Shown: piece after piece, positions 13,613-57,845 of the stretch
Layout of the letters: every line of letters starts with the position of its first letter
Numbering within the stretch: position 1 is the stretch's first letter
Assembly (NCBI GenBank): GCA_963674965.2
Contig: CAXXFL010000004.1
Span: forward strand, 128,001 to 192,000
Length of the DNA stretch: 64,000 bases
Direction: 5' to 3'
Source: a bacterium
GTDB taxonomy: Bacteria > RBG-13-61-14 > DATKZS01
Position numbers and translations under genes: made by a program
The notes under the pieces: generated by a model
What the model saw: only the letters and a program-made list of their open reading frames with translations
Databases searched by the model: none
Told to the model about the DNA's origin: nothing

Positions 13613-14653
13613 ATGGCGACAACTGGAATAGTAAGGGACGTTTTTTACACGAGGCACGACACGGGCCCGGGCCATCCCGAGTCCTCCCGCCGGCTCGACT
13701 CGATTTACGCCGAGCTTGACCGGAGAGAAATCATGGACCAGGCCCAGTCCATCGACAAGCGGGAGGCCCTGCCCGAGGAACTCATGAGAGTCCATACCCG
13801 CGAGCACGTCCAACTCGTGGCCTCGACGGCGGCCCGGACCGCGGCCTACCTGGACGGCGACACGCCCACCAGCCCGGACTCCTTCAAGGCCGCCCTCCTC
13901 GCGGCCGGCGGACTCATGAACGCGACCGACGCCGTCATCCAGGGAGACGTGAAAAACGCCTTCGCCCTGGTGCGCCCGCCGGGACACCACGCCGAAAGCT
14001 CCCAGGCCATGGGGTTCTGCCTGTTCAACAACGTGGCCGTCGCCGCCATGCACGCCATCGAGAAACGCGGCAAAAAACGCATACTGATAATCGACTGGGA
14101 CGTGCATCACGGCAACGCCACCATGCACTCCTTTTACAAGGACCCGAGGGTGATGTATTTTTCCACCCACCATTACCCCTTTTATCCGGGCACGGGCAGG
14201 TGGGACGAGATAGGCGACGGCGAGGGCAAGGGCTACACGGTCAACGTGCCCTTCCCCGGCGGCTGCGGAGACGGCGAACACGATAACGCCTTCTCGAGGA
14301 TTTTCGATCCCGTGGTGAAGGCGTACAAGCCCGACCTCATCATGGTCTCGGCCGGGTTCGACGCCCATTATCGCGACCCCCTGGGCGGGATGCGCGTGAC
14401 TGAGGAGGGCTTCCAGCGCATGACCCGCAGGGTCCTCGAGTGGGCCGACGAGTTCTCGGACGGACAGGTGGTGATGACCCTGGAGGGCGGGTACAACCTC
14501 GAGGCCCTGGCCAACTCCGTCGCCGACGTCATCGAGGTATGCATGGGCAAAAAGCAGGCGCCGGGCGGCGACCTGGACTCGACCGACGGGTTCGAGGCCG
14601 TAAGGCCCAAGGTGGCGGGGGCCTTGTCGGGCATATGGAAGGGACTGGACTAG
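13613..14653 (+). CDS. Histone deacetylase family (class II/HdaH-like) amidohydrolase
   Basis: HPES..RL, RPPGHHA, GFCLFNN, DWDVHHGN, SAGFDAH, LEGGY. Confidence 0.93.
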   Translation: MATTGIVRDVFYTRHDTGPGHPESSRRLDSIYAELDRREIMDQAQSIDKREALPEELMRVHTREHVQLVASTAARTAAYLDGDTPTSPDSFKAALLAAGGLMNATDAVIQGDVKNAFALVRPPGHHAESSQAMGFCLFNNVAVAAMHAIEKRGKKRILIIDWDVHHGNATMHSFYKDPRVMYFSTHHYPFYPGTGRWDEIGDGEGKGYTVNVPFPGGCGDGEHDNAFSRIFDPVVKAYKPDLIMVSAGFDAHYRDPLGGMRVTEEGFQRMTRRVLEWADEFSDGQVVMTLEGGYNLEALANSVADVIEVCMGKKQAPGGDLDSTDGFEAVRPKVAGALSGIWKGLD

Positions 14654-43582: not shown

Positions 43583-43932
43583 TTTATGACGGTTTGCGGA
43601 CATGGGTCCGTTCGGCAAAGAATACCAGATTTCCACTGTCAACCTATCGTGAATCAGGATCTTCCCCACCATGGACACCCCGAGGATAACGTCGTTTGGA
43701 CTCCCGGCTCCGCCTGGAGAACTCTCGCGGTCCTGAAAGCCGAGCCACGAAAGACCGCCGCCAAACGGGAAAAATGAAAAACGGGGCTTTATGACTTTAT
43801 AATCTCGCGTCACAAGCAGGACCGAACCTGATGGCAAGAAGGGCGAAGGAAGGAGACATATTCCCGCTACGCTCTTTGAGTCTCGTGGTGATATCTTTGA
43901 TTAGATCAGGGGCCGATTCGAAGGCGCCGGAG

Positions 43933-44466
43933 TTACCCGTCCGTGCCGATAAGCTTCATGCCCGTTTTGTTTCTTTTGGCCAGTTCCTGGTAGATTTTCT
44001 TGCCCCAGGTCCATATCTGGCGGTCCAGGTCCCTGATCGGGCCCTTGACCTCGACGGGCACGCCGTGGGCTATGACCTCGGGCGGGACTTCCTGTTTCGA
44101 GCGGACCAGTCCCATCTCCCCGATGATGGTCCATTTGCCCACCTTGGCGTAGTCGCTGACGGTGGAGCGCATGCCGAGCACGGCGTAGTCGTCAATAAAG
44201 GCGTTGTGGATCATGGCCCCGTGTCCGACGGTGACCTCGCGTCCAAAGGTCGTCTTGTCGTTGGGCCGGGCGTGAACGATGACGCCCTCCTCGATGGCGG
44301 TGCCTTCGCCTATCTCGATGGTCCCGTAGTCTCCGCGGAGGATGGCGCCCCACCCGACGTAGCAATGGGGGCCCACGCGCACGTCTCCTATCAGCGTGGC
44401 GGTGGGAGCGATCCAGGCCGTGGGATCGATTTGGGGAACTCTTCCCTCGAAATCGTAAATCGGCAT
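43933..44466 (-). CDS. Gamma carbonic anhydrase family hexapeptide-repeat protein
   Basis: IAPTA.LIGDV, GAILRGD, three His (IVH, VGHG, MIHN). Confidence 0.92.
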   Translation of the reverse strand: MPIYDFEGRVPQIDPTAWIAPTATLIGDVRVGPHCYVGWGAILRGDYGTIEIGEGTAIEEGVIVHARPNDKTTFGREVTVGHGAMIHNAFIDDYAVLGMRSTVSDYAKVGKWTIIGEMGLVRSKQEVPPEVIAHGVPVEVKGPIRDLDRQIWTWGKKIYQELAKRNKTGMKLIGTDG

Positions 44467-44493
44467 TTTATAAAGGGCCCGACCGGTCCCAGG

Positions 44494-44634
44494 TCAGGAT
44501 TCTTTCGCGGCTTCCGGGTCAAGAGGGAAAGAAGGCGTCGAGCCCTCCCGCCTAAGTATGCGTTTTTTCCCGCGGTTCTTCTTGTGACGCCTCATGGCGC
44601 GGCGGGCCTTGGTGAATTTTGCGTTGCTTGCCAT
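44494..44634 (-). CDS. Small basic protein (46 aa)
   Basis: AAGGAG RBS, MASNAKFTKARRAMRRHKKNRGKKRILRREGSTPSFPLDPEAAKES*; below the ORF-track cutoff. Confidence 0.75.
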   Translation of the reverse strand: MASNAKFTKARRAMRRHKKNRGKKRILRREGSTPSFPLDPEAAKES

Positions 44635-44819
44635 TTGTATACTCCTTCTCGGGCGCAAAAGTACGCCTCGAATTTTCCATTCAAGTTTTCAGAGTATATC
44701 ACGGAGTTCCAAAAGTTTCCAGGCCTTGTCCGTCACCAAAGAAAAATACGAGGTGAAAGCGTGGATCGCCGCCGACAAAGCGCCTCGCGCCCCGCCCCCG
44801 GCGCAAGGCCCTACGGGCG

Positions 44820-45197
44820 CTAGGCCCGATCGTTTTTTTTCAATACCTCGAGGACCTTCTCCTTTAATTTGTCCAGGCGGCCGTTCTTTTCAATAAAGGC
44901 GTCGGCGTTTTTTACCAAGGGATCGTCCTTGTACTCGACCAGCGAGGTATAGACGATTACGGGAACGCGGTTCCTTGACGCCTTGAGCCGCTCGAGCACG
45001 GTCAGCCCGTCCACGATCTGCACGAAAATATCCATTATCAGTAGGTCGGGCGGGATATCGGAGTTCACCATGTTGAGGATTTCTCTTCCGTCCTTGGCCA
45101 GGCGCACGTTGTAGCCCTCGGCCGCGAATTCCTTCTTCATAAACTCTCTAATATTGGCGTTACGGTCTCCAATCAGAATGGTCGTTTTCTTTTCCAT
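44820..45197 (-). CDS. Single-domain response regulator (atypical acidic pocket)
   Basis: LIGDRN, DLLIMD, DGL, YTS, FIEK. Confidence 0.85.
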   Translation of the reverse strand: MEKKTTILIGDRNANIREFMKKEFAAEGYNVRLAKDGREILNMVNSDIPPDLLIMDIFVQIVDGLTVLERLKASRNRVPVIVYTSLVEYKDDPLVKNADAFIEKNGRLDKLKEKVLEVLKKNDRA

Positions 45198-45232
45198 GGC
45201 GGAGGACCTCCTGCCACCTCGAAAAAAATTTA

Positions 45233-45248
45233 TGCAATACCGGCGCCC
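45233..45248 (-). promoter_or_regulatory. Possible sigma54 promoter for the receiver gene
   Basis: Minus strand GGGCGCCGGTATTGCA = GG-N10-GC with TTGCA, 35 nt upstream of the ATG. Confidence 0.4.
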
Positions 45249-45588
45249 GGCAAGAACGGGAAAAGAGAGTACGCAAAAACGCGGGGATAGGAGCGTAAAG
45301 GATTTCCGAGCCGGGGGAGAAAGAAAATGTGCTTTAAAAATGCCAATATTTTTTCCATCCTGTAAATTTATTTTTTTGCTTTAATGTTCGTTTAATCTTC
45401 CTTTGACCATGGCGCGCGAAAGCCGGCCCATGCCTTTTTCAAAAGCAGTTGGCGAGGCGTTTTTCGCGAGTCTATAGAACTGAAATATAAGCGAAATATC
45501 TCGCGTAAAATATTAATTTATTAAGTCTTCATCCGTCATTTCCGGGTATGGTTTTTGCCTTATTCCAAAATGGAGAAGGATGAATTAA

Positions 45589-47652
45589 ATGAAGGGAAAA
45601 AAAACCGACTGGGCCCCGCTGGAGAAGATGGGCCTCTACAGGATTTTTCCCATCCACCGCCTTCCGGTGTCGGTGGGCATGAAAATCCTCTTCATCTTGA
45701 TGCTGATAGTAGTGTTGGGTTCCTTCGTCACCTTGCGGCTCAGCCTGAGGCTTATTTACGACAACATCTGGCGAGAGGCCCAGAACAAACTTCATAACGA
45801 CCTTAAAACGGCCCGCATGATGTACGACGGCGCTCTGATGGACGTGGACAGGGTGGTTGACTTCACGGCCAACCGCTTTTTCCTGATGGAGGGCATCGAG
45901 AGCGGCGGTCTGGAAGACTTGAAAGTACAACTCGAGAAAATCCGGCGGGACCGGGGCCTGGACGTTTTCACCCTGGTCGATAACGAGGGGGTGGTCATTT
46001 TACGGACCGCCGCCCCCTACTCGGTGGGTGACAACGTGAGCAACGACCCGATCGTTCACTCGGCCCTGTCCGGCCACAAGGCCTCGGGCACGGTGGTCAT
46101 GACCCGCGAGCGACTGAAGCTGGAGGGTGAAGAACTCGTCATCAGGGCCCACGTTAACGTCAAGCCCACCAAGAACGCCCTGCCCGGCGCGCTCGAGGTG
46201 GTGGACTCTGGCATGCTGCTGATGGCGGCTTACCCGGTTTATTCCCGCCATGGAGTTAAGCTGGGGGCGCTCTACGGCGCTAGGCTTCTAAATAACGATA
46301 CCGTCCTGGTCGACTCGATCATGGCCCAGATGTTCCCCGGTTCCCAGGAGCAAATAAACCTGGCCATGGTTTCGATTTTCTTTTGGGACGTCCGCGCCTC
46401 GACCAGTCTTCGCTTCTCGAACGGCAACCGGGCCGCGGGCTCTCTGATGTACGGCGAGGTTAGCGAGGCGGTCCTTAAAAACGGTCAGAACTGGGTGGGC
46501 ACCTCGTGGGTGGTCCAGGACTGGTACTTCGCCGCCTACGAGCCGATCAGGGACCCCGACGGCAAGGTGATAGGTTCCCTGGGCATCGGGCTTTGGAAAA
46601 GCCCCTTCATCGCCATCCGCGACAACTTCGTCAGTCGTTACGTCAAGATATCCCTGGTGGCCCTGGCCATAGTCCTGGTATTGGGCTTTATCTTTTCCCG
46701 CATGTTGACCAAGCCTTTGCGCGAGTTGGCCAAGGCGAGCCACGAGCTGGCCAAGGGGAAACTGGACTTCAGGGTCAAGATCAAGGCCGGGCGAGACGAG
46801 ATAAGAGAGCTGGAGTTGGCCTTCAACCTCATGGCCAACAACCTCAATACCATCATGCAGGAAAGACAAAAGCTGACCGACGAGCTTCGCGACCTTAACG
46901 ACAGGTACATGGAGCTTCTGGGCTTCGCCTCCCACGAGATCAAGGGACCGGTGGGAGTGATAGCGGTCACGGTCGAGAACCTGCGGAAGAACGGGTCCCA
47001 TTTGAGGGATGACGCCTTCGAGAAAATCCTCGACCGTCTGGACAGAAACGTGTCCTATATCTCCTCGATGAGCGACAAGTACCTCCATTACTCGAAGATC
47101 GAGTCCGGCCAGCTCAAGCTTTACAAGACCGAGACCAAGATACTCTCCGAGATCATCGAGCCGGCGGTGGAGGGCGAGCAAAAGCCCATCCTCGAGAAGA
47201 AGATGGAGGTCGAGATCGAGAACGCTGAGGAGATGGCCGACCTGACTCTATACGTCGATCCCGAGATGACGCGAGTAATTTTTTCCAACCTCATCTCGAA
47301 CGCCGTCAAGTACGGGTACCAGGGAGGATACATCAGGATAGGGTGCGTGGAGACGGAGGAATCCTACGTCTTCAACGTGAAGAACAACGGGGAGGGCATA
47401 CCGCCGGACGAGATTGGATTGATATTCAAGAAGTTCCGGCGTCTCGAGTCGGCCCGGAAGAAGCAGAAGGGCACCGGACTGGGCCTTTTCATCACTCGGG
47501 AGATAGTCGAGCTTCACGGAGGCAGGATCAGGGCGGAGTCGGAGCCGGGAAAGTGGGCCAACTTCATCTTCGAGCTGCCCAAGTCCAGCGTTAACCCCTC
47601 GGTGCACGACAAGGGGAACAAGGTCCAGGGGGAGGAACTCTGGGGGTATTGA
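45589..47652 (+). CDS. Cache-domain/HAMP sensor histidine kinase
   Basis: TM-periplasmic Cache-TM, HAMP (DEI.EL..AFN.M), H-box SHEIKGP, NLISNAVKY, GEGIP, GTGLGL. Confidence 0.93.
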   Translation: MKGKKTDWAPLEKMGLYRIFPIHRLPVSVGMKILFILMLIVVLGSFVTLRLSLRLIYDNIWREAQNKLHNDLKTARMMYDGALMDVDRVVDFTANRFFLMEGIESGGLEDLKVQLEKIRRDRGLDVFTLVDNEGVVILRTAAPYSVGDNVSNDPIVHSALSGHKASGTVVMTRERLKLEGEELVIRAHVNVKPTKNALPGALEVVDSGMLLMAAYPVYSRHGVKLGALYGARLLNNDTVLVDSIMAQMFPGSQEQINLAMVSIFFWDVRASTSLRFSNGNRAAGSLMYGEVSEAVLKNGQNWVGTSWVVQDWYFAAYEPIRDPDGKVIGSLGIGLWKSPFIAIRDNFVSRYVKISLVALAIVLVLGFIFSRMLTKPLRELAKASHELAKGKLDFRVKIKAGRDEIRELELAFNLMANNLNTIMQERQKLTDELRDLNDRYMELLGFASHEIKGPVGVIAVTVENLRKNGSHLRDDAFEKILDRLDRNVSYISSMSDKYLHYSKIESGQLKLYKTETKILSEIIEPAVEGEQKPILEKKMEVEIENAEEMADLTLYVDPEMTRVIFSNLISNAVKYGYQGGYIRIGCVETEESYVFNVKNNGEGIPPDEIGLIFKKFRRLESARKKQKGTGLGLFITREIVELHGGRIRAESEPGKWANFIFELPKSSVNPSVHDKGNKVQGEELWGY

Positions 47653-47700
47653 ATCGGCGAGCGTTTACCACGTCCGCTTCCGGATCAAGGAGGTCATGAA

Positions 47701-48090
47701 ATGGCAAAGAGAATCTTACTGGTGGATGACGACCGCGACATGGTCGAGACCCTTACCGAGAGCCTGCAGGCCGAGGGCTTCGAGGTGCTCGCGGCCTATG
47801 ATGGGGTCCAGTGCATGGACATGGTCAAAAGGGGCAAGCCCGACCTGATCGTGCTTGACGTGATGATGCCCAACAAGCACGGTTACCAGGCCGCCAAGGA
47901 ACTGGAAGGCGACGAGTTCAGTCACATCCCGCTCATCATGCTCACGGGCGTGGCCGAGCACCTTCGAGAGACCAAGTACTCCCACGCCCAGGCCCTGGAG
48001 TGCCAGGCTGACGACTTTATCAGCAAGCCCCTCAAATTCGAGGTCCTTTTGAAAAGTATAAGGAGGCTTCTTAAAAACGGCGGGAAGTAA
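47701..48090 (+). CDS. Single-domain response regulator
   Basis: LVDDD, LDVMMP, MLT, FISKP. Confidence 0.93.
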   Translation: MAKRILLVDDDRDMVETLTESLQAEGFEVLAAYDGVQCMDMVKRGKPDLIVLDVMMPNKHGYQAAKELEGDEFSHIPLIMLTGVAEHLRETKYSHAQALECQADDFISKPLKFEVLLKSIRRLLKNGGK

Positions 48091-48110
48091 CAAAGCAAAG
48101 AGAGGTGAAC

Positions 48111-49334
48111 ATGAGTAGTAACTCTGGGCGGGGATGGACGGTAGTTTTTTCAGGCATGGGAATCAACCTCGCGCTCGGGGTGCTGTACACCTGGAGCGTG
48201 ATCTCGAAGAAAATCCCCGACGACTGGGGATGGAGCGAGTCGGACCGGGCGCTTCCCTATACGATCGCCTGTCTGATCTTCGCCTTTATGATGGTCCCGG
48301 CGGGCAAGCTGCAGGACCGCTTCGGGCCGAGGGTGGTAGCCGCGCTGGGAGGGCTTTTAACGGGCGTGGGCATGGTCCTGGCTGGAGCGTTCACGGACCT
48401 GTGGATTTTTATTTTAGGCTTTGGGGTCCTGGCGGGGACCGGCATCGGGTTCGGCTACGCCGCCGCCACCCCGCCGGCGGTCAAGTGGTTCCCGCCGGCG
48501 AGGACGGGAATGATCGCGGGAATAGTGGTTTCCGGGTTCGGGCTGGCCTCGGTATATATATCGCCGCTGGCCAATTACCTGATCGACGCGAGGGGCGTTG
48601 GCCCGGCCATGACCATATTGGGGATCGCCTTTTTGGTCGTGGTCGTGGGACTGGCCCAGCTTCTGCGCAATCCTCCCGCCCTGGGCCCGAGGGAGAAGGC
48701 GGCTTCCACGGCGGCCGACGAGGACTATACGGCCTCCCAAATGCTGAGGACGGCCCCCTTTTACATGCTGTGGCTGATGTACGCCTTTAACGCGGGGGCG
48801 GGCCTTATGATAATCGGCAAGCTGGCCAAGCTGGTCGAGGTCCAGGCCAACTTCAAGGCGGGCTTCATCCTGGTGGCGCTTCTGGCCATAGGCAACGCGG
48901 GCGGACGGCTGCTGGCCGGGTCGCTCTCGGACAAGATGGGAAGGATCGCCATCCTCAGGGTATTCACCGCCTTTCAGTGCGTGCTCATGTTCCTCATGCC
49001 CTTCATGGACAACTGGGTCGTCATGGTCGTTTTTTCCATGTGCATGGGCATGAACTACGGGTCGAACCTTTCGCTTTTCCCGTCGATCACCAAGGATTAT
49101 TACGGACTTAAAAATTTCGGGGTCAATTACGGCGCCTTGTTCACGGCCTGGGGCGCCGGGTCCATACTGGCGCTGGTGGCGGGAAAAATCTACGACCTGC
49201 ACGGAAGGTTCGACTACGCGCTCTACGTGGCGGGGGCGCTACTTGTCGTGACGCTGGCCTTGTCTTTCTTCGTGAAAAAGCCGGAGGAGATATCGGGCGC
49301 CATGCCCCACGCAAGACCGAGCGGGGCGGCCTGA
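48111..49334 (+). CDS. OFA family MFS transporter (oxalate/formate antiporter-like, likely monocarboxylate)
   Basis: LGVLYTWS, G.LQDRFGPR, KWFP...G...G, NAGGR, KNFGVNYG. Confidence 0.9.
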   Translation: MSSNSGRGWTVVFSGMGINLALGVLYTWSVISKKIPDDWGWSESDRALPYTIACLIFAFMMVPAGKLQDRFGPRVVAALGGLLTGVGMVLAGAFTDLWIFILGFGVLAGTGIGFGYAAATPPAVKWFPPARTGMIAGIVVSGFGLASVYISPLANYLIDARGVGPAMTILGIAFLVVVVGLAQLLRNPPALGPREKAASTAADEDYTASQMLRTAPFYMLWLMYAFNAGAGLMIIGKLAKLVEVQANFKAGFILVALLAIGNAGGRLLAGSLSDKMGRIAILRVFTAFQCVLMFLMPFMDNWVVMVVFSMCMGMNYGSNLSLFPSITKDYYGLKNFGVNYGALFTAWGAGSILALVAGKIYDLHGRFDYALYVAGALLVVTLALSFFVKKPEEISGAMPHARPSGAA

Positions 49335-49454
49335 CCGGCCATAAAGATATGGGAGATGACGAGACCCGGTTAAAGGGGCGCGGGGAAACACAAGGAGAGG
49401 CGCGAGGGGAAGTATTTTTTCGCGCCGCTTTGCCAAGGGAAAAGGAGGCAAGTG

Positions 49455-51446
49455 ATGAACGATGCAAAACGAGAAGAGGTAAAAAAAGAGATAGTCTCCA
49501 TGGCGATCGAGGACAGGGTTTTCGAGGTGTCGAAAACGATCCAAAAGGACGCCTATATAAACTCCATGGCCCAATACGAGGCCATGTACAAGGAATCGCT
49601 GGAAAAGCCCGACGTCTTCTGGGGGCGTCTGGCCGAGCAGTTTTTATGCTGGGAAAAGAAATGGGACAAGGTCTTCGAGTGGGAGGACAAGGCCCAGGCG
49701 AAATTCAAGTGGTTCTCGGGAGGCAAGCTGAACGTTTCGGTCAACTGCCTGGACCGGCAGATCAAGACGTGGCGCAAGAACAAGGCCGCCCTTATCTGGG
49801 AGGGAGACGAGCCGGGGACCGACCGGACCCTGACCTATCTCGACCTGTACAGGGAGGTCAACAAGTTCGCCAACGTTCTTAAAAAGCACGGCGTGAAAAA
49901 AGGAGACAGGGTGGCCGTCTACCTGGGCATGATCCCCGAGCTGCCCATCACCATGCTGGCCTGCGCCCGGATCGGGGCCGTCCACAGCGTGGTTTTCGGC
50001 GGGTTTTCCGCGGACGCCTTGCGCGACCGAGTGCTCGACAGCCAGTGCAAGGCCCTGGTCACGGCGGACGCCGGCTACCGGGGTTCGAGGACCGTGCCCC
50101 TCAAGGCCGGCGCCGACGCGGCCCTCGAGGGGGCCAAGTGCGTGGAAAAGGTCATCGTGGTCAACCGGGCGAACCAGAAGGTGGCCATGAAGGAGGGACG
50201 CGACTTCTGGTGGCACGAGGAAATGAAAAAGGCCGAGCCCTTCTGCGAGCCCGAGGTCATGGACGCGGAGGACCCGCTTTTCATACTCTATACCTCAGGG
50301 TCCACGGGCAAACCCAAGGGGGTCCTCCACACCACGGCCGGGTACCTCCTCTACGTGGCCGCGACCCTCAAGTGGTGCTTCGACGTCAAGGACGAGGACA
50401 CCTGGTGGTGCACCGCCGACATCGGGTGGGTCACGGGACACAGCTACATCGTGTATGGCCCTCTTTGCATCGGGGCCACGTCGGTAATGTTCGAGGGGGT
50501 GCCCTCCTATCCCGACCCCGGCCGCTTCTGGGACGTGGCGCAAAAATTCCACGTCAACCAGTTCTATACCGCGCCCACCGCCATCAGGGCCCTGATGCGG
50601 GAGGGAAACGAGTGGCCCAGGAAGTACGACCTCTCCTCCATCCGCGTGCTGGGAAGCGTGGGCGAGCCCATCAACCCCGAGGCCTGGATGTGGTACCATG
50701 AGAATATCGGCCGCGATGACGTTCCCATCGTGGACACCTTCTGGCAGACCGAGACCGGTGGATTCGTCATCACGCCCCTGCCCGGGGCCATGAAGCTTAA
50801 GCCCGGCAGCGCCACGCGTCCCTTCTTCGGCGTGGAATGCGAGGTGCTCCGCAAGGATGGCTCGCGGTGCGGCGAGAACGAGGGCGGGTCACTGGTCATG
50901 CTTCGGCCCTGGCCCGGCCTTATGCGCACCGTATACGGGGACCATGAGCGCTTCATTCAGCAATACTGGCAAATGTTCCCCGGTAAATACAACACCGGCG
51001 ACGGCGCGCGCGTGGACAAGGACGGGTATTTCTGGCTGATGGGCCGCATAGACGACGTCATCAACGTCTCGGGCCACAGGCTGGGAACGGCCGAGGTCGA
51101 GTCCGCCCTCGTCGCCCATCCCTCGGTGGCCGAGTCGGCCGTGGTCGGAATGCCCCACGACTTGAAGGGCCAGGGCATCTACGCCTTCGTGACCCTCAAG
51201 ACCGGGGTTGCCCCCACTGAGGAACTGAAAAAGGAACTGGCCAAACACGTGAGAAAGGAAATAGGACCCATAGCCACGCCGGATAAAATACAGTTCGCCG
51301 ATGCTCTGCCCAAGACCAGGTCGGGCAAGATCATGCGGCGCATCCTCAGGAAGATAGCGGAAGGCAGGGTGGGGGAGCTGGGCGACACCACGACCCTGGC
51401 CGACCCCGCGGTGGTGGACGCCCTCGTGAAGGGGGCCGCCGATTGA
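49455..51446 (+). CDS. acs: Acetyl-CoA synthetase (AMP-forming)
   Basis: [55 protein letters not shown]. Confidence 0.97.
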
Positions 51447-51472
51447 CCACCATCTCCGGGGAAGGGTGAAAT

Positions 51473-52609
51473 ATGCGCTCGGCCTTTATATATAATGAGC
51501 GGATGGGCGGCTTCAAGCTCGGGCGGGACCATCCTTACGATCCCGCCCGAATAACCAGGGTGTACGATCTGTGCCGCCGCCGCGGGCTTTTCAACCGGGA
51601 CGGCCTGAGGGTCGTCTCGCCCAGGCCCCTGGATATAAAAGACTTCTACGAGGTCCACGAGCCCGTGTACCTCGAGACCCTGATAACCGCCGACGAGTCC
51701 GGCTTCGAGCCGTGGATGCTGAAGTTCGGCCTGGGCACGGAGGACTGCCCGGTATTTCCGGGGCTTTTGGAGTTCCTCATGCTTTGCGCCGGGGCCACCA
51801 TCGAGGCGGGAACATGGGTGATGGACGCGGGATACGATTTCGCCTTCAACCCGCTGGGAGGTTTCCATCACGCGGGGCGGACCCAGGCCGAGGGGTTCTG
51901 TTACGTGAACGACGTCTGCCTGATCGCCCGCCGCTGGGCCGACCGCGGTTTCAGGGTGATGATCGTGGACGTGGACGCCCACCACGGCAACGGCGACCAG
52001 GACTTTTTTTACGACGATCCCCGCGTTTTCACCTTGAGCTTCCACGAGTCGGGCAAGACGCTTTATCCCTTTGGGGGAGAAGTCACCGAGATTGGAAGGG
52101 GACCGGGACTCGGGTATAACGTCAACGTGCCCATGCCGGCCGGAAGCGACGACGAAATATTCGACTTCGCCTTTAACGAGGTCTTTCCTCCCTTGATCGA
52201 GGCTTTCTCACCCGACGTCGCGATCGGAATCATGGGGGTAGATACCTTCGCGACCGATCCCCTTACCAACCTCAAGATGACCAACAACTCATACATCCGG
52301 GCGGCCAAAAAAATCCAGCGCCTGTCTCCCCGCTGGATAGCTCTCGGGGCCGGCGGATACAACATGGACAACGTGATTCGAAGCTGGACTCTTTTATGGG
52401 CCGCCGCGAACGGCCTGGACAAGGGAGACGACGCCATGGAGACCCTGGGAGGGACCTTCATGCGGGACATGGACCTTGGCGTCTCGAGCCTTCGCGACAT
52501 GGCCGCCAGGAACTCGGGTCCGGAAAAAACCGAAATATTCAGGCAAGTGAAAGAAGAGGTGGTATATATTAAAGATAAGGTCTTCCCCCTGGTGGGGGCG
52601 CTCGCGTAA
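51473..52609 (+). CDS. acuC: AcuC-like (class I HDAC) protein deacetylase
   Basis: HPY.P.R, GLGTEDCPVF, GGFHHA, GFCYVND, DVDAHHGNG, DPLT.L, GAGGY. Confidence 0.88.
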   Translation: MRSAFIYNERMGGFKLGRDHPYDPARITRVYDLCRRRGLFNRDGLRVVSPRPLDIKDFYEVHEPVYLETLITADESGFEPWMLKFGLGTEDCPVFPGLLEFLMLCAGATIEAGTWVMDAGYDFAFNPLGGFHHAGRTQAEGFCYVNDVCLIARRWADRGFRVMIVDVDAHHGNGDQDFFYDDPRVFTLSFHESGKTLYPFGGEVTEIGRGPGLGYNVNVPMPAGSDDEIFDFAFNEVFPPLIEAFSPDVAIGIMGVDTFATDPLTNLKMTNNSYIRAAKKIQRLSPRWIALGAGGYNMDNVIRSWTLLWAAANGLDKGDDAMETLGGTFMRDMDLGVSSLRDMAARNSGPEKTEIFRQVKEEVVYIKDKVFPLVGALA

Positions 52610-52613
52610 AAGG

Positions 52614-54521
52614 ATGAAGGAAAATGTCGCGCATCGGGAAAAGGTCCAGGAATCGAGCAAGGACTGGCGAGGCCAGTACGAGATGGCCAAAACCACGCCC
52701 GCGGAAGCCATCCGTAATATCAAGCGGGGCGACCGCATCTTCATCGGCACGGGCTGCGGCGAGCCCCAGGCCCTGGTCAAGGCCCTGATCGAGAGCCAGT
52801 CGGGCATAGAGGACGCCGAGATATTCCACCTTTTAAGCCTGGGAGTGGCCGCTTACACCGAGCCACGCTTCAACACTATTTTCCGGCACAACTCCTTTTT
52901 TATCGGGCCGGCCTCCAGGGAGGCGGTATGGGAAGGGCGAGCGGATTATATACCCATCATGCTCTCGGACATTCCCGGCCTCTTCCGGGAGGGAAGGCTC
53001 CCGATCGACGCCGCCCTTATCCAGGTGGCCCCGCCGGACAAGCACGGCTTCTGCCCCTACGGCGTGTCGGTGGATATTGTCAAGGCGGCGGCGGAGACGG
53101 CCGAGTTGGTGATAGCCCAGGTCAATCCGCTGATGCCGCGCACCCTGGGGGACAGCTACGTGCACGTCGGCGATATCGACCTGGTAGTGGAACTGGAGGA
53201 GCCCATACTCGAGTGGACCTATCCCAAACCCGAGGAGGTCCACCTGCAAGTGGCCAGGAACGTGGCCCGCCTGGTCACCGACGAGGCCACGCTCCAGATG
53301 GGCATCGGTACCATACCCAACGCCGTGCTCGGGTTCCTCAAGGACAGGCAAGACCTGGGAGTGCATACCGAGGTCTTCTCCGACGGGCTGATAGACCTCA
53401 TCGAGGCCGGGGCCGTTACCTGCGCCAAGAAGTCGATTCATCCAGGCATGATCGTCTCCTCCTTTTGCATGGGCACGAGGAAGCTCTACGACTATATCGA
53501 CGATAACCCCTTTTTCGAGTTCCATCCCACGGATTATTGCAACAACCCCTCGATCATCGCCCGAAACGACCGGCTCACCGCCATTAACGTGGCCCTCGAG
53601 GTCGATCTCACGGGCCAGGTCAACGCCGACTCCCTGGGCTTTCGCTTCTACTCCGGCATCGGGGGGCAGGCCGACTTCATACGAGGAGCGGCCCTCTCGA
53701 AAAAGGGAAAGCCCATTATCGCCATGCCCTCCACCACTTTGGACGGCAAGCACAGCCGCATAGTGCCCACCCTGACCGAGGGCTCGGGCGTGGTCACCAC
53801 CCGAGGCGACGTGCATTACGTGGTGACCGAGTACGGGTCCGCCTACCTGCATGGCAAGAACATACGGGACCGGGCCATGGCGCTTATAAGCATCGCCCAT
53901 CCCGACGTGAGGCACGACCTCATCCAGTTCGCCAAGCACAAGAAGTATATATATCCGGACGAGCTGATGCCTCTCGGACACGGCGTGGTCTATCCGGAGG
54001 AGCTGGAGACGGTATTCAAGACCAGGGAAAAGGGAGAAGTCTTCATCTGGCCGGTCAGGCCCGCGGACGAGAGCCGGGTAAGGGACATGTTCTACGAATT
54101 GTCCGAGCAGAGCGTTTACCTTCGCTTTTTCGGACAGGTCAAAACCATGCCTCACGAGAAGGCCCAGCTTATGGTCAACCTGGACTACCAGGACAAGATG
54201 GCCATCGGCGCCTACGTGGGCGAGCATCCGCAATTCAAAATGGTGGCGCTCGCCCAGTACGTTCGCGATCCCAATTCCAACATGGCCGAGCCCGCCGTCC
54301 TGGTTGACGACGCGTGGCACAACCAGGGACTGGGGCGCTTCCTGTTCCAGTATCTCATCCGCGTGGCCAGGCAAAAGGGAGTCGAGGGCTTCTACGCGGA
54401 GGTCCTGCCCGAGAACAAGGGCATGGCGCATATTATCGAAAACTGCGGATACAAAACCTCCACCAAAATCGAGGAAGACGTCTACTTCTATGAAATAAGG
54501 TTCGAAAAACCCGAGGAATAG
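52614..54521 (+). CDS. Acetyl-CoA hydrolase/CoA-transferase fused to C-terminal GNAT acetyltransferase
   Basis: LQMGIGTIP, LGVHTEVFSDG, DLTGQV, SGIGGQADF, VVTEYG; then LSEQSVYLRFF, AEPAVLV...QGLG, EVLPEN..M. Confidence 0.92.
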   Translation: MKENVAHREKVQESSKDWRGQYEMAKTTPAEAIRNIKRGDRIFIGTGCGEPQALVKALIESQSGIEDAEIFHLLSLGVAAYTEPRFNTIFRHNSFFIGPASREAVWEGRADYIPIMLSDIPGLFREGRLPIDAALIQVAPPDKHGFCPYGVSVDIVKAAAETAELVIAQVNPLMPRTLGDSYVHVGDIDLVVELEEPILEWTYPKPEEVHLQVARNVARLVTDEATLQMGIGTIPNAVLGFLKDRQDLGVHTEVFSDGLIDLIEAGAVTCAKKSIHPGMIVSSFCMGTRKLYDYIDDNPFFEFHPTDYCNNPSIIARNDRLTAINVALEVDLTGQVNADSLGFRFYSGIGGQADFIRGAALSKKGKPIIAMPSTTLDGKHSRIVPTLTEGSGVVTTRGDVHYVVTEYGSAYLHGKNIRDRAMALISIAHPDVRHDLIQFAKHKKYIYPDELMPLGHGVVYPEELETVFKTREKGEVFIWPVRPADESRVRDMFYELSEQSVYLRFFGQVKTMPHEKAQLMVNLDYQDKMAIGAYVGEHPQFKMVALAQYVRDPNSNMAEPAVLVDDAWHNQGLGRFLFQYLIRVARQKGVEGFYAEVLPENKGMAHIIENCGYKTSTKIEEDVYFYEIRFEKPEE

Positions 54522-54750
54522 CCGGGAAAGACCGAAGAAGCGCTCGCAAATAAAGCGCTCATTTCACTTTGCCAAGAGCGTCGACTAACGCTCGAAATAA
54601 AACAGCCTCATCGAAAGGTCCGAATATTATTCCAGGCAATTGGATGCTTTTCTTCATCAAAGTAGTTTCCGGGGCGGGCCGCCGTTTGTCCGCCGTCTGG
54701 CCGACCTGATATAATCGGACTTGATAAAAGGAGGGATAAGGGGCGGACGA

Positions 54751-55278
54751 ATGAAGAAGATAGGCGCCAAAGGGCAGAGGTGGCTTAAAGGTTTTCACCT
54801 GGCGGCGGTGAGCTCATGGGTGGGAGGAGCGGTTTCCCTGCTGTCCCTGTATTTCCTCAAGGACGGGGTCCATGACGCGGGCGTACTGTATGGAATCAAC
54901 CAAAGCGTCCACCACGTGGACATGATGGTGGTGGTCATTCCGGGGGCTTTCGGCTGCCTGATCACGGGCCTTCTTTACGGCGTCTTTACCAGGTGGGGAT
55001 TTTTCCGGCACGGCTGGCTTATATACAAATGGGCCATAACCGTCCTCGCCATACTTTTCGGGACCTTTTTTCTGGGGCCATGGGAAACGCGGATGATGGA
55101 AATCTCGGGCAAGCTCGGCATGGCCGCTCTCGAGAACGGAGAATATCTTTACAACCAGCGCATGAACCTCATCTTCGGCGCCGTCCAGACCATGGTCCTT
55201 GTGGTCACGATCTTTATTTCCATTTTTAAGCCATGGAAAAACATCGGCACAAAACAAAAAAACAATTCGCCCGATTGA
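54751..55278 (+). CDS. DUF2269-like membrane protein
   Basis: KGFHL....WVGG, ITG, WGFFRH.W...KW, ISIFKPW. Confidence 0.75.
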   Translation: MKKIGAKGQRWLKGFHLAAVSSWVGGAVSLLSLYFLKDGVHDAGVLYGINQSVHHVDMMVVVIPGAFGCLITGLLYGVFTRWGFFRHGWLIYKWAITVLAILFGTFFLGPWETRMMEISGKLGMAALENGEYLYNQRMNLIFGAVQTMVLVVTIFISIFKPWKNIGTKQKNNSPD

Positions 55279-55295
55279 CTTTTATGGAGGAAAAG

Positions 55296-56837
55296 ATGCC
55301 CCGTACTTTACAAGCAGCCGCTCTTTTGGCCGTTATTTTATTGCTTGCCGCCGCCGGCTTCGGGATTGATAAGAGTCGGGACGAGCCCTTTTCCATGCCC
55401 GAGGTGCAAAAACCAGCCTTTCAGGACCGGGATTTTAACGTCGTCGATTTCGGCGCGACGCCCGGCGGCAAAACGAAAAACACGCGGGCCTTCTCGCGGG
55501 CCATCCAGGCTTGCGTGGACGCGGGCGGCGGACGCGTGGTGGTTCCCCCCGGCAAATGGCTGTCGGGACCCATTCACCTCGAGAGCAAGGTGAACCTCCA
55601 TCTTGAAAAAGGAGCCACCATCTTATTCAGCTCCGATCCAGACGATTATCTGCCCCCCGTCTTCACCAGGTGGGAGGGAGTCGAGTGCTACAATTACTCA
55701 GCCCTTGTCTACGCCAACGGGGCCGAGAACGTGGCCATAACCGGGGAGGGGACGCTGGACGGACAAGGGGTGAATTGGTGGCCATGGAAAGCTAAGCAAA
55801 AAGAGGCCGTTAGGCGCCTTTACGAGCAGGGCGCCCGGGACGTTCCAGTAAAAGAGAGGATATTCGGAACCAAAGAGGACGCCCTTCGGCCCTCCCTGGT
55901 CCAATTCATTAACTGCAAAAAAGTTTTGCTCGAGGGCGTGACCACCAAGGACTCTCCCTTTTGGACGAACCATTTCGTCTACTGCGAGAACGTGACGGTC
56001 AGGGGAATCACGGTCCTGGCCCCGAGCTGGTCGCCCAACACGGACGGAATCAACCTGGACTCGACGCGAAACGCCGCGGTCAGCGGCGCCTATATATCGG
56101 TAGGAGACGACGCGGTGTGCGTCAAGTCGGGCCGTAACCGGGACGGAATCCGAGTGGGCGTTCCCACCAGAAACGTCCTTATCGAGAAGGTCACGGTGGA
56201 CAAGGCCCATGGCGGCTTCGTGGTGGGAAGCGAGACCTCGGGGGGCATCGAGAACGTCATGGCCCGGGGCAGCCGATATCTCGATAGCGCCAGAGGGGTA
56301 AGAATTAAATCCAAGCGCGGCCGGGGAGGGTACGTAAGGAACGTCTTCGTGGAGGACACGGTGATTGAAAAGGCCTCGGAGAAGGCCATCGAGATTACGA
56401 TGAACTATTCATTTTCCTACGGGGAAATGTCCGAGGCCGTTCCCCTGTTCGAAAACATCCGGATAAACGGTCTGCGTTGCGGCCTGGCCGGAAAAGCCGC
56501 GGAGGTAGTGGGACTTGCCGACTCGAAAATAATAGGTCTAACTCTTTCCAATATCGAGATTAATTCCGCGCGGGGAATGAATATTTCCGAGACGGGCGGC
56601 CTTACTCTTGACAATGTTAAAGTTAATCGGGCGCTGGGTCCGGCTATCACCCTGGAGAACTGTGAGAACGCGGTGATCAGGAATGGTACTTTTTTTACCG
56701 CTTCCGAATATCTGAGAGTCACGGGACCGTCGAGCGCGAATATCCGGGTAATCGCCCTCGACGAGACGCGGGCGAAGAAAGCCATCTCTCAGGGAAAATC
56801 CACGCCCAAGGAGGCCGTAATCATTACAAAACCCTGA
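55296..56837 (+). CDS. Secreted GH28 (exo-)polygalacturonase
   Basis: Signal peptide, NTDG, GDD, AHGG, RIK. Confidence 0.93.
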   Translation: MPRTLQAAALLAVILLLAAAGFGIDKSRDEPFSMPEVQKPAFQDRDFNVVDFGATPGGKTKNTRAFSRAIQACVDAGGGRVVVPPGKWLSGPIHLESKVNLHLEKGATILFSSDPDDYLPPVFTRWEGVECYNYSALVYANGAENVAITGEGTLDGQGVNWWPWKAKQKEAVRRLYEQGARDVPVKERIFGTKEDALRPSLVQFINCKKVLLEGVTTKDSPFWTNHFVYCENVTVRGITVLAPSWSPNTDGINLDSTRNAAVSGAYISVGDDAVCVKSGRNRDGIRVGVPTRNVLIEKVTVDKAHGGFVVGSETSGGIENVMARGSRYLDSARGVRIKSKRGRGGYVRNVFVEDTVIEKASEKAIEITMNYSFSYGEMSEAVPLFENIRINGLRCGLAGKAAEVVGLADSKIIGLTLSNIEINSARGMNISETGGLTLDNVKVNRALGPAITLENCENAVIRNGTFFTASEYLRVTGPSSANIRVIALDETRAKKAISQGKSTPKEAVIITKP

Positions 56838-56972: not shown

Positions 56973-57845
56973 ATGTTTAGGGGAATATTTACCGCTTTGG
57001 TAACTCCGCTCAAAGACGGAAAGATTGACGAGGAATGCCTGGGCAATCTCGTCGATTGGCAGATAGATAATGGCATACACGGCCTGGTACCCTCGGGCAC
57101 CACCGGCGAAAGCGCGACCTTGAGCCACGAGGAGCACGGACAGGTCATCGACATCGTGGTCAAACGGGCGGCGGGAAGGGTACCCGTCGTCGCCGGCACC
57201 GGCAGCAACAGCACCTGGGAGGCCATCGAGCTGACCAAGCACGCCAAGGAGGCCGGGGCCGACGCTTCCCTCCAGATAACGCCCTACTATAACCGCCCGA
57301 CCCAGGAGGGACTTTACCGGCACTTCGAGGCCGTGGCCAAGGAAGTGGACATCCCCATAATCCTTTACAACGTGCCGGGCCGAACGGGCGTGAATATGCA
57401 GCCCGAAACGGTGGCCCGCCTCTCGAAGATCGATAACATAGTGGGACTTAAGGACGCGGCCGGCAGCGTCAAGCAGACCCTGGACACGGTTACCGCCTGC
57501 GGCGACAACTTCGCCGTCTTGTCGGGGGACGACTTCGCGAACCTCAGCGTGCTGGTCTCGGGAGGAACGGGCGCGATTTCGGTCTCCGCCAACGTGGCCC
57601 CCCGGCCACTGGTGGATTTCTACCAGGCCTGGGAGGCGGGCGAAATTAAAAAAGCGTGCGAGGCTCAAAGAAAACTGCACGAGCTCAACCGCTGCATGTT
57701 CCTCGAGACCAACCCCATTCCCGTCAAGTACGCGGTCCATCTTCTCGGGCTTTGCGGGGACGAGATTCGGCCGCCCATGACCGTACTGGACGAGAAATTC
57801 AGGCCCAGGCTCAAACAGGCCCTGCAAGAACTTGGACTCATGTGA
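56973..57845 (+). CDS. dapA: 4-hydroxy-tetrahydrodipicolinate synthase
   Basis: GTTGES, PYYN, LYNVPGRT, GLKDA, SGDD, ETNPIPVK. Confidence 0.97.
   Translation: MFRGIFTALVTPLKDGKIDEECLGNLVDWQIDNGIHGLVPSGTTGESATLSHEEHGQVIDIVVKRAAGRVPVVAGTGSNSTWEAIELTKHAKEAGADASLQITPYYNRPTQEGLYRHFEAVAKEVDIPIILYNVPGRTGVNMQPETVARLSKIDNIVGLKDAAGSVKQTLDTVTACGDNFAVLSGDDFANLSVLVSGGTGAISVSANVAPRPLVDFYQAWEAGEIKKACEAQRKLHELNRCMFLETNPIPVKYAVHLLGLCGDEIRPPMTVLDEKFRPRLKQALQELGLM

Follow-up and report, generated by a model that had tools for sequence, protein, structure and literature searches.

A CoA-transferase fused to a Pat-type acetyltransferase and encoded beside acetyl-CoA synthetase and a class-I-type deacetylase: a candidate module for reversible Acs acetylation

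Reversible acetylation of Acs, an acetyl-CoA synthetase that forms AMP, is the textbook example of how protein acetylation controls prokaryotic metabolism. The stretch of DNA analysed here, 64,000 nucleotides of contig CAXXFL010000004.1 (hereafter the window), carries an acs gene followed by genes for a histone-deacetylase-type (HDAC) enzyme and for a fusion protein that joins a coenzyme A (CoA)-transferase to a GNAT acetyltransferase domain. This raises the question of what a whole CoA-transferase does on an acetyltransferase that is encoded next to Acs. We favour, with guarded confidence, the answer that these genes encode a reversible Acs acetylation module, in which the GNAT would write on K626 of Acs, the class-I HDAC would erase, and the transferase half would play a part like that of the PatZ regulatory domain while possibly still being an enzyme.

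Gene identities rest on an open reading frame (ORF) table and on Pfam and NCBIfam profile searches of the window, which gave the following features.

45589-47652, + strand: sensor histidine kinase, 687 aa (Pfam sCache_3_3, HAMP, HisKA, HATPase_c)
47701-48090, + strand: lone receiver, 129 aa (Pfam Response_reg, no other domain)
48105-49334, + strand: monocarboxylate carrier, 409 aa, a member of the SfMCT (bacterial SLC16-like) family in the major facilitator superfamily (MFS) (Pfam MFS_1; NCBIfam SfMCT)
49452-51446, + strand: Acs, an acetyl-CoA synthetase of the AMP-forming type, 664 aa (TIGR02188)
51327-51329, + strand: codon of Acs K626 in PKTRSGK (motif match)
51473-52609, + strand: class-I-type Zn-dependent lysine deacetylase (AcuC/HDLP-like), 378 aa (Hist_deacetyl)
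52614-54521, + strand: CoA-transferase::Pat-type GNAT fusion, 635 aa (AcetylCoA_hydro + AcetylCoA_hyd_C + Acetyltransf_1)
52686-53939, + strand: CoA-transferase half of the fusion, residues ~25-442 (4-hydroxybutyrate / butyryl-CoA:acetate CoA-transferase-like)
53370-53372, + strand: fusion E253 in HTE (motif match)
53655-53669, + strand: fusion GIGGQ (motif match)
53991-54503, + strand: Pat-type GNAT module of the fusion, residues ~460-630 (aligns with PatZ 710-878)
54288-54290, + strand: fusion E559, catalytic Glu of the GNAT (alignment with PatZ E809)
54318-54335, + strand: fusion acetyl-CoA P-loop HNQGLG (alignment with PatZ)

A first-pass annotation of this DNA had described six co-directional, tightly spaced genes, and this description is borne out: at the coordinates it gave, six + strand ORFs follow one another, separated by gaps of 48, 14, 117, 26 and 4 nt. 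The domain content likewise came out as claimed, the subfamily of the transporter apart.

The N-terminal half of the fusion matches PF02550 (111.7 bits) and PF13336 (219.2 bits), with both halves of the CoA-transferase fold present. It is closest to solved 4-hydroxybutyrate CoA-transferases, to which it is 42-45% identical (9vag at E = 7e-145, then 3eh7, 2oas and 3gk7), and Yersinia RipA also matches; Foldseek gave template modelling (TM) scores of 0.92-0.94 to 3gk7, 2oas and RipA. The motifs HTE253 and GIGGQ align with those of 9vag, 3eh7, 2oas and 3gk7, in keeping with the earlier statement that the fusion retains the catalytic Glu and the GxGG motif of a CoA-transferase. We take E253 to be the catalytic Glu that forms the CoA thioester, and PDB titles name E249 mutants of RipA and a glutamyl-CoA thioester adduct of AarC. 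The butyryl-CoA:acetate CoA-transferase equivalog TIGR03948 scored 325.5 bits and did not reach its cut-off of 674.8. Furthermore, the genome encodes a stand-alone CoA-transferase paralog that is 36% identical to the fusion. In the gene call of the collection the fusion starts at M24 and has 612 aa; W18 and Y22 are nearly invariant in the family and the solved CoA-transferases align from residue 15-17, so that the 635-aa frame used in the first-pass annotation is preferred. The AlphaFold2 (AF2) model of the fusion has a mean predicted local distance difference test score (pLDDT) of 83 and a predicted TM score (pTM) of 0.77.

The C-terminal half is a GNAT of the Pat type, as had been proposed from its resemblance alone. 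Residues 460-628 align end to end with residues 710-878 of PatZ (9it0, E = 9e-17), and the domain also aligns with the GNATs of S. lividans Pat (SlPat 20-188; 4nxy/4u5y), MsPat/MtPat and Sulfolobus Pat. It matches the NCBIfam mycobacterial Pat model at E = 1.2e-20, and on the AF2 model it superposes on the GNAT chain of 4U5Y (4u5y_A) with a Foldseek TM of 0.94 and a root-mean-square deviation of 1.6 Å. Its closest solved relatives are all protein acetyltransferases. E559 lies opposite PatZ E809 (SlPat E123), which PMC12184503 calls the key catalytic residue, and GLG 572-574 lies opposite the GLG of the PatZ P-loop (G822-G824). The N-terminal 440 residues contain AcetylCoA_hydro and AcetylCoA_hyd_C instead of the CoA_binding_2/Succ_CoA_lig/ATP-grasp_5 module of type I enzymes, so the fusion is not a type I Pat. 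The genome encodes no other multidomain acetyltransferase of the Pat type: its one further Pat-like GNAT is a lone frame of ~199 aa, and none of the four ATP-grasp_5 proteins of the genome matches the Pat GNAT.

To describe how the two halves are conserved, residues were counted over 90 near-full-length, stop-free fusions, comprising 89 loci and the window (3 of 92 loci were dropped as partial). In the GNAT, R504 and N601 are present in 90/90, the P-loop residue G572 in 88/90, and E559 is Glu in 86 and Asp in 4. In the transferase half, position 253 is Glu in 81/90, His in 7 and Asp in 2, and G351 of the GxGG motif is Gly in 83/90, Glu in 6 and Asp in 1. Mean identity to the fusion of the window is 58% over the transferase half and 39% over the GNAT. 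Two loci, L084 from the cultured strain Desulfoferrobacter suflitae DRH4 and L075, carry Asp at 253 together with Lys for N93 and keep GxGG.

The seven sequences with H253 are the same seven that lack G351; they also have Ser for T252, and all of them keep the GNAT residues. They come from archaea, with the label Promethearchaeota or Hermodarchaeota in six cases and 'uncultured archaeon' in the seventh, and they form one clade with a support of 100 in the Shimodaira-Hasegawa-like approximate likelihood ratio test (SH-aLRT). In six of the seven loci acs is the immediate divergent neighbour at 263-300 bp, and the seventh has only 256 bp of upstream sequence. Because the clade keeps both the GNAT residues and the acs neighbour, its tie to Acs is independent of CoA-transferase catalysis. 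This comparison suggests that the conserved job is that of the GNAT, that Acs is one of its targets, and that the transferase half is able to do its part without turning over; the H253 clade is the strongest argument for this.

The putative target scores 1018.4 bits against TIGR02188 (cut-off 724.95) and, just as the first-pass annotation had stated, contains the acetylatable-lysine motif PX4GK as PKTRSGK; the lysine is K626. No variation of PKTRSGK is seen among 12 Acs sequences whose genes are linked to a fusion or to the kinase, and all complete bona fide Acs among the linked ones retain it. A second full Acs paralog of the genome, 71% identical, lies elsewhere beside a transposase gene, and a third, more distant synthetase is 37% identical. 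The idea of a decoy peptide, raised by an Acs-like frame of 93 codons on contig C3, was rejected, as the frame is a relic of the last ~66 codons of another acs without any upstream part (G000:C3:412033-412221 (-), equal to L100:1534-1722). This relic is 76% identical to Acs 598-660, has an intact PKTRSGK and stop codons just before it, and adjoins an Old-Yellow-Enzyme/pyridine-nucleotide oxidoreductase-like gene.

The candidate eraser matches PF00850 Hist_deacetyl at 256.7 bits and no NCBIfam model. Its best solved relatives are Clr6, HDAC1/2/8 and HDLP (E = 1e-57 to 1e-50), and it contains GGFHHA at residue 129, DVDAHHGNG at 166 and GAGGY at 292, which supply the paired His residues, the Asp-His-Asp metal site and, in GGY, the catalytic Tyr described in the HDAC8/HDLP literature. 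The assignment to class I rests on these best solved matches and on passages of PMC11532494, in which AcuC is class I / cluster 2c. The genome (6.5 Mb, 7 contigs) encodes two sirtuins and one acetate kinase as well. A second HDAC-family gene, 31% identical to the one in the cluster, is found in the window ~32 kb upstream at 13670-14515 (+), with an open frame of 355 aa.

The pairing of writer and target was also modelled, with Acs residues 533-664 and GNAT residues 456-635, a separate alignment for each, in three runs alongside 3 controls. The interaction score ipSAE was 0.73, 0.73 and 0.67 in the three runs and 0.00 in the best of the 3 controls; this mark was reached by 116/157 solved complexes and by 2/215 mismatched pairs. 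At least 88% of the contacts are common to the runs, and the pLDDT of the partner is at least 87. In the models K626 contacts GNAT residues 504-506, 561 and 596, and Acs residues 622-624 contact E559. The predicted complex hence places K626 in the GNAT active site and is compatible with Acs acetylation. A complex of a Pat GNAT with the C-terminal domain of Acs (4U5Y) is already solved, so that the model shows likeness to a known binding mode and not that this particular pair binds.

In the mechanism that we propose, the GNAT of the fusion would use acetyl-CoA to acetylate the adjacent Acs at K626, a lysine on which adenylate formation depends, and this would shut off the ATP-costly Acs. Deacetylation would fall to the class-I HDAC-type enzyme, whose gene lies immediately upstream of that of the fusion. 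The transferase half would sit where classic Pat/PatZ has a catalytically dead ADP-forming-synthetase-like domain, and may act as an acyl-CoA-binding module that gates or scaffolds the GNAT; as its site is intact, it may in addition catalyse the reaction acyl-CoA + acetate <-> acid + acetyl-CoA. The genes for the Cache kinase, the receiver and the monocarboxylate carrier, all three upstream, would be a separate module tied to acs and placed alongside in this genome.

A more active role for the transferase half is also conceivable, which we regard as unlikely and yet worth setting out. Here the half would work as a ping-pong enzyme, in which the balance of Glu253-CoA thioester and free Glu would report the ratio of acyl-CoA to short-chain acid and would gate or feed the GNAT. 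Depending on the acid that the cell takes up, it might also select acetyl, propionyl, butyryl or lactyl as the acyl group to be placed on Acs K626 or, alternatively, on Acd, the acyl-CoA synthetase of the ADP-forming kind, with the HDAC serving as a broad deacylase.

Alternatively, the fusion may be primarily a metabolic CoA-transferase between acetate and C3-C4 acyl-CoA (e.g. butyryl- or 4-hydroxybutyryl-CoA), which would cooperate with Acd or Acs in acetate cycling and carry the GNAT as a feedback appendage that reports its own turnover, so that acetate would be activated without ATP while Acs is shut off, one of the two options raised in the first-pass annotation. The catalytic Glu and GxGG kept in 81 and 83 of the 90 fusions, the better conservation of the transferase half (58% against 39%) and its closeness in sequence and fold to the solved 4-hydroxybutyrate CoA-transferases all fit such an enzyme. 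So does the position of Acd, the most frequent neighbour in the survey described below, directly upstream and on the same strand; in this pathway logic, which is ours, the pair would conserve ATP. We nevertheless consider a primarily metabolic role doubtful. The H253 archaeal clade retains the fusion and the acs neighbour without the Glu or GxGG, and the butyryl-CoA:acetate equivalog cut-off is missed (325 against 675 bits). Moreover, the fused domains stand apart from the seven sampled stand-alone enzymes in the tree (SH-aLRT 91), which suggests a specialised lineage, and the genome has its separate stand-alone paralog.

A tblastn survey of the gene neighbourhood covered 80 loci with up to 10 kb on each side where the contig allows, and matches above 600 bits were counted as bona fide Acs. 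Such an Acs (53-71% identical) was found in 19 loci and an HDAC in 20; 31 loci have either and 8 have both. When only the 33 loci are taken that extend at least 9 kb to each side, these numbers become 10, 11, 16 and 5, respectively. Chance adjacency would be ~1% for one- to three-copy genes in genomes of 3-6 Mb, a figure that is our estimate and not a computed control, and the acs/HDAC linkage recurs across phyla far above it. HDAC and fusion are closely paired, with a gap of 4 nt in the window, and in 10 further survey loci the HDAC lies directly downstream of the fusion on the same strand.

All ORFs within three genes of the fusion were then clustered over 89 loci (78 from the survey and 11 relatives; L043, L047 and L093 were dropped because the ORF caller missed the fusion frame). 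Acd, recognised by its Pfam architecture, occurs in 36/89 loci; 25 of them have it at position -1, and in 34 it shares the strand of the fusion. An HDAC is a neighbour in 22/89 and an AMP-forming acyl-CoA synthetase in 15/89, of which 12 are bona fide Acs and 3 are distant at 26-28% identity. MFS carriers (6/89), Pta/Ack-type fusions (3/89) and DRTGG/AAA_26 proteins (3/89) follow, and at least one of Acd, AMP-forming synthetase or HDAC is present in 55/89. The linkage to acs and acuC that the first-pass annotation put forward for checking is thus recurrent (31/80 loci with Acs or HDAC) and escapes refutation, yet it holds only in part: the linkage is genuine and has the acetate/acetyl-CoA node as its centre, but another partner is commoner than Acs.

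Two further neighbours were observed in the survey. Directly after the fusion and on the same strand, five loci (L089:1922-3037 (-), L090, L091 and two others), three genomes of a related family among them, encode a 371-aa protein with a C-terminal GNAT (Acetyltransf_1), so that HDAC, fusion and second GNAT stand in a row. A 412-aa small-GTPase-like protein (Gtr1/RagA, Arf; L082:13467-14705 (-)) lies three genes downstream of the fusion in four loci.

The frequency of Acd invites the reading that Acd is the real target or partner of the family, with the GNAT acetylating Acd or working with it in trans as a split Pat, and with the Acs adjacency as secondary. We judge this improbable. We know of no evidence for acetylation control of Acd, a point at which no search was aimed. 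Besides the counts given above, an Acd role would account for the four same-family relatives, all with the order Acd-HDAC-fusion, and the PatZ regulatory domain is itself made of Acd-like domains according to PMC12184503. In the window, however, no Acd adjoins the fusion, and Acs stands in exactly that slot, the best Acd ortholog of the genome (52%) being on another contig. Furthermore, the archaeal dead-site clade pairs with Acs alone, and Acs carries the motif that Pat enzymes are known to recognise and, in the predicted complex, has its K626 inside the active site.

A full-length fusion is present in 12/12 other genomes of the class, with the HDAC directly upstream on the same strand in 7/12, namely in 4/4 of the same family and in 3 of a second family. 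Neither acs nor the MFS gene, the kinase or the receiver lies beside the fusion in any of the 12. The six genes had been proposed as a self-contained acetate switch, and in this respect the proposal is not supported, as the order is not conserved. These comparisons are best read as showing that the window joins two modules, one being kinase-receiver-(MFS)-Acs and the other HDAC-fusion, and that Acs occupies the position that Acd has in the relatives. In an unrelated lineage, locus L049 has REC-CBS, Acs, MFS (59% identical), Acd, fusion, kinase and an NtrC-type regulator in one run, so comparable clusters have been assembled more than once, from different regulatory parts. As for Acd itself, the genome of the window (G000) has three full-length Acd-like genes and, spread over many contigs, 12 or more frames of ~470-590 aa whose match to Acd (31-40% identity) is confined to its N-terminal half (CoA-binding + ligase), which makes its set of Acd-alpha-like paralogs unusually large.

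That the six genes are a chance juxtaposition without shared regulation, or that the GNAT acylates a small molecule or the fusion itself and not Acs, is very improbable: the six-gene order in 0/12 class relatives and the lack of a promoter or regulatory RNA signal in the scans of the cluster would agree with it, but acs, HDAC and Acd recur beside the fusion in unrelated phyla and archaea (55/89 loci), the gaps are 4-117 nt with no + strand terminator-like site at 46687-54956, and the GNAT has only protein acetyltransferases as its closest relatives.

The fusion is widespread. Relatives occur in at least 597 reference species of bacteria and archaea in a reference-genome scan, and the archaeal carriers include Asgard, Bathyarchaeia, Thermoplasmata and methanogen-related archaea. 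The best 120 protein matches come from many phyla and are all 612-716 aa long, and 119/120 list the GNAT Pfam beside both transferase families. In a sample of 121 genomes (13 of the window's phylum and 108 others), the fusion is present in 13/13 genomes of the phylum, none of which has a Pat-type GNAT in a frame of at least 800 aa. Outside the phylum, a full-length fusion was found in 6/108 genomes, two of them with two copies, while a Pat-type GNAT in frames of 895-992 aa (classic-Pat size, classed by size alone) was found in 8/108 and one only in ~200-aa frames in 2/108. No case of a fusion together with a Pat-GNAT frame of at least 895 aa was seen among the 121 genomes. The idea that the fusion excludes classic Pat was set aside: no co-occurrence was seen, but the numbers are too small.

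The descent of the fusion was addressed by a quick IQ-TREE analysis of the transferase domain (LG+G4; 97 rows, 90 fused and 7 stand-alone; two long-branch warnings). One branch with an SH-aLRT of 91 splits the 7 stand-alone homologs from the 90 fused domains, corresponding to 1 change. An interleaving of fused and stand-alone transferases, as expected from repeated fusion or fission, was rejected on this basis for the 7 stand-alone sequences sampled, and the tree of these domains is compatible with a single old fusion.

Several points weigh against the proposed acetylation module. We infer the target, the donor and the direction of the modification alike, and this applies to every member of the family. 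None of Acd, Acs and HDAC lies within three genes of the fusion in 34/89 loci, and the commonest neighbour is Acd (36/89) ahead of the AMP-forming synthetases (15/89, 12 bona fide Acs). The four same-family relatives have Acd, not acs, beside the HDAC-fusion pair, so that the Acs adjacency of the window is recent and belongs to a single lineage. A site kept in 81/90 sequences and a transferase half that is the better conserved one are unlike the dead PatZ domain and argue for a working enzyme, not only a sensor. In addition, the H253 clade represents one evolutionary event and counts as one observation. With two sirtuins, a second HDAC and a second Acs in the genome, the assignments of eraser and target are not exclusive. 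The docking score may reflect the model's memory of 4U5Y. Finally, the non-co-occurrence counts (6 and 8 of 108) are too small for significance.

Of the three genes upstream of acs, the kinase has a periplasmic single-Cache (sCache_3_3) region followed by HAMP, HisKA and HATPase_c, and no NCBIfam equivalog matched it at its cut-off. The receiver scored 73.9 bits against a DVU0259/DivK-type model, short of the cut-off of 160, and it has no DNA-binding or other output domain, which sets it apart from classical two-component transcription control. Homologs of the kinase sensor region occur in only 3/12 other genomes of the phylum. In one of these, G003, a kinase ortholog (63% identical), a receiver ortholog (57%) and Acs (76%) follow each other in the order HK-receiver-Acs, at a locus separate from the Acd-HDAC-fusion locus of the same genome; in G006 and G008 the kinase homologs are 36% identical each and no acs adjoins them. 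A conserved sensor-acs unit beyond one family is thus unsupported, as only the closest of the 3 kinase homologs adjoins acs. A second lone receiver gene (44820-45197 (-), 125 aa, REC only) is divergent from the kinase gene and 391 nt upstream of it, so the kinase is flanked by two lone receivers; beside this divergent gene lies a 330-aa ORF at 43831-44823 (+) without a Pfam or NCBIfam match.

The transporter had been placed in the oxalate/formate (OFA) family. That it is an MFS carrier stands, and the subfamily does not: it remains below the oxalate/formate cut-off (252 bits against 375) and passes instead the curated SfMCT L-lactate MFS model NF049980 (411.1 bits against a cut-off of 320). 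Its match to the SfMCT structure 6g9x is a distant one (E = 1.5e-47). By our reading of the alignment, it keeps the equivalents of SfMCT Y119, N276, R280 and Y331, which are 4/6 of the substrate-site residues named in passages of the literature on SfMCT, and the L145/F335 pair is swapped to F/L. In passages of PMC6573034, SfMCT of Syntrophobacter fumaroxidans transports L-lactate as an L-lactate/H+ symporter, propionate and butyrate were the only linear acids to compete, and the authors infer that at least 3 carbons are needed. The family thus speaks for L-lactate. Homologs of the transporter directly adjoin acs in 7 of the 11 survey loci that have such a homolog, and acetate as the cargo is a fair guess, in tension with the measured specificity of the SfMCT family; since acids of fewer than 3 carbons did not compete in SfMCT, the guess follows from the adjacency to acs. 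The window transporter resembles SfMCT in passing the family cut-off and in four substrate-site residues, and differs from it in the distance of the match, in the L145/F335 swap and in the location of the gene and its homologs beside acs.

Transcription signals were sought over the cluster and its flanks. The promoter/terminator scan found no terminator-like site on the + strand from 46687 to 54956, and its counts of sigma-70 and terminator sites were not above those of shuffled sequence. The sigma-54 consensus gave 14 matches against 17.9 expected, none of them on the + strand upstream of the cluster, and an Rfam scan of 44500-55500 returned a single match, to JA03, which at 26 bits stays below the threshold of 44. 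Three genes on the + strand follow 3' of the cluster, behind a promoter-like site at 54686-54715, encoding a weak match to HemJ/UPF0093-like membrane proteins (54721-55278), a GH28 galacturonidase-like protein (55233-56837) and DapA (56973-57845). These genes appear to be unrelated to the cluster and to mark its 3' boundary.

The logic of writer, eraser and Acs lysine is already established, and the new element is a Pat-type writer with an unclassified, enzyme-sized partner domain, whose activities as given here are all proposals. Among the known systems, Pat/PatZ (YfiQ; 9it0, 9isq) of Salmonella enterica and E. coli, which works with CobB, is closest. It shares with the fusion a C-terminal GNAT of ~170 residues with the same catalytic Glu and P-loop and a large N-terminal module from an acyl-CoA-handling enzyme family, and Acs is its classic target. 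According to PMC12184503, the GNAT of PatZ is activated by acetyl-CoA that is bound in the regulatory domain. In contrast, the N-terminal module of the fusion is a family-I-type CoA-transferase (AcetylCoA_hydro fold) with its catalytic residues kept and is not ADP-forming-synthetase-like, and a Zn-dependent HDAC takes the place of a sirtuin as the linked eraser.

The AcsA-AcuA-AcuC system of Bacillus subtilis has acs beside genes for an acetyltransferase and a class-I HDAC-type deacetylase, and acetyl-CoA-dependent acetylation inactivates Acs in a feedback (abstracts of PMC11255334 and PMC11910552). There, acs is divergent from acuABC, as given in the abstract of PMC13121692, whereas the window genes are co-directional. 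AcuA is a small stand-alone GNAT, not close to the Pat GNATs and not among the solved-structure matches of the fusion, while the writer of the window carries a 440-residue CoA-transferase. AbfT (3gk7), 2oas, 9vag and RipA (3qli) share the fold of the transferase half (TM 0.92-0.94) at 37-45% identity, with HTE and GGQ aligned. They are stand-alone enzymes of ~430-450 aa; the fusion adds a 190-residue linker plus GNAT, scores below the equivalog cut-off and falls in a clade separate from the 7 stand-alone homologs. The type III enzymes (mycobacterial cAMP-Pat, 4ava/4orf; ACT-GNAT; NADP-GNAT MxKat) also combine an N-terminal metabolite-responsive module with a C-terminal Pat-type GNAT acting on Acs or its relatives. 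Their modules are small, non-catalytic ligand-binding domains in the passages that describe them, unlike the whole enzyme of the fusion.

Prokaryotic writers are sorted into five types by their GNAT fusion partner. The regulatory modules named in passages of PMC6456759, PMC8556138 and PMC12184503 are ADP-forming-synthetase-like, cAMP, ACT and NADP modules, with no CoA-transferase module among them, and the CoA-transferase::GNAT architecture is absent from this five-type (I-V) scheme. Full-text searches, the two reviews (PMC6456759 and PMC8556138) and the main text of PMC12184503, supplements aside, yielded no published description of the architecture and no biochemical characterisation of the arrangement, which agrees with what the first-pass annotation had stated.

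Judged by its sequence, the partner domain differs in kind from the known regulatory modules, being a whole enzyme with an intact site that would act on the same pool of acetate, acyl-CoA and acetyl-CoA. The window offers a compact test bed in which the target (Acs), the eraser (HDAC) and the writer are encoded in a row. New here is the archaeal clade that has lost the transferase Glu and GxGG while keeping the GNAT, and this natural catalytic-dead lineage lets the sensing and the catalytic roles be separated. If the transferase half should prove to be a ping-pong enzyme, the writer would be controlled by catalysis rather than by binding, and the fusion would represent a sixth, widespread type of prokaryotic lysine acyltransferase that includes Asgard archaea. 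The pools of fermentation acids would then be linked directly to the ATP cost of acetate activation.

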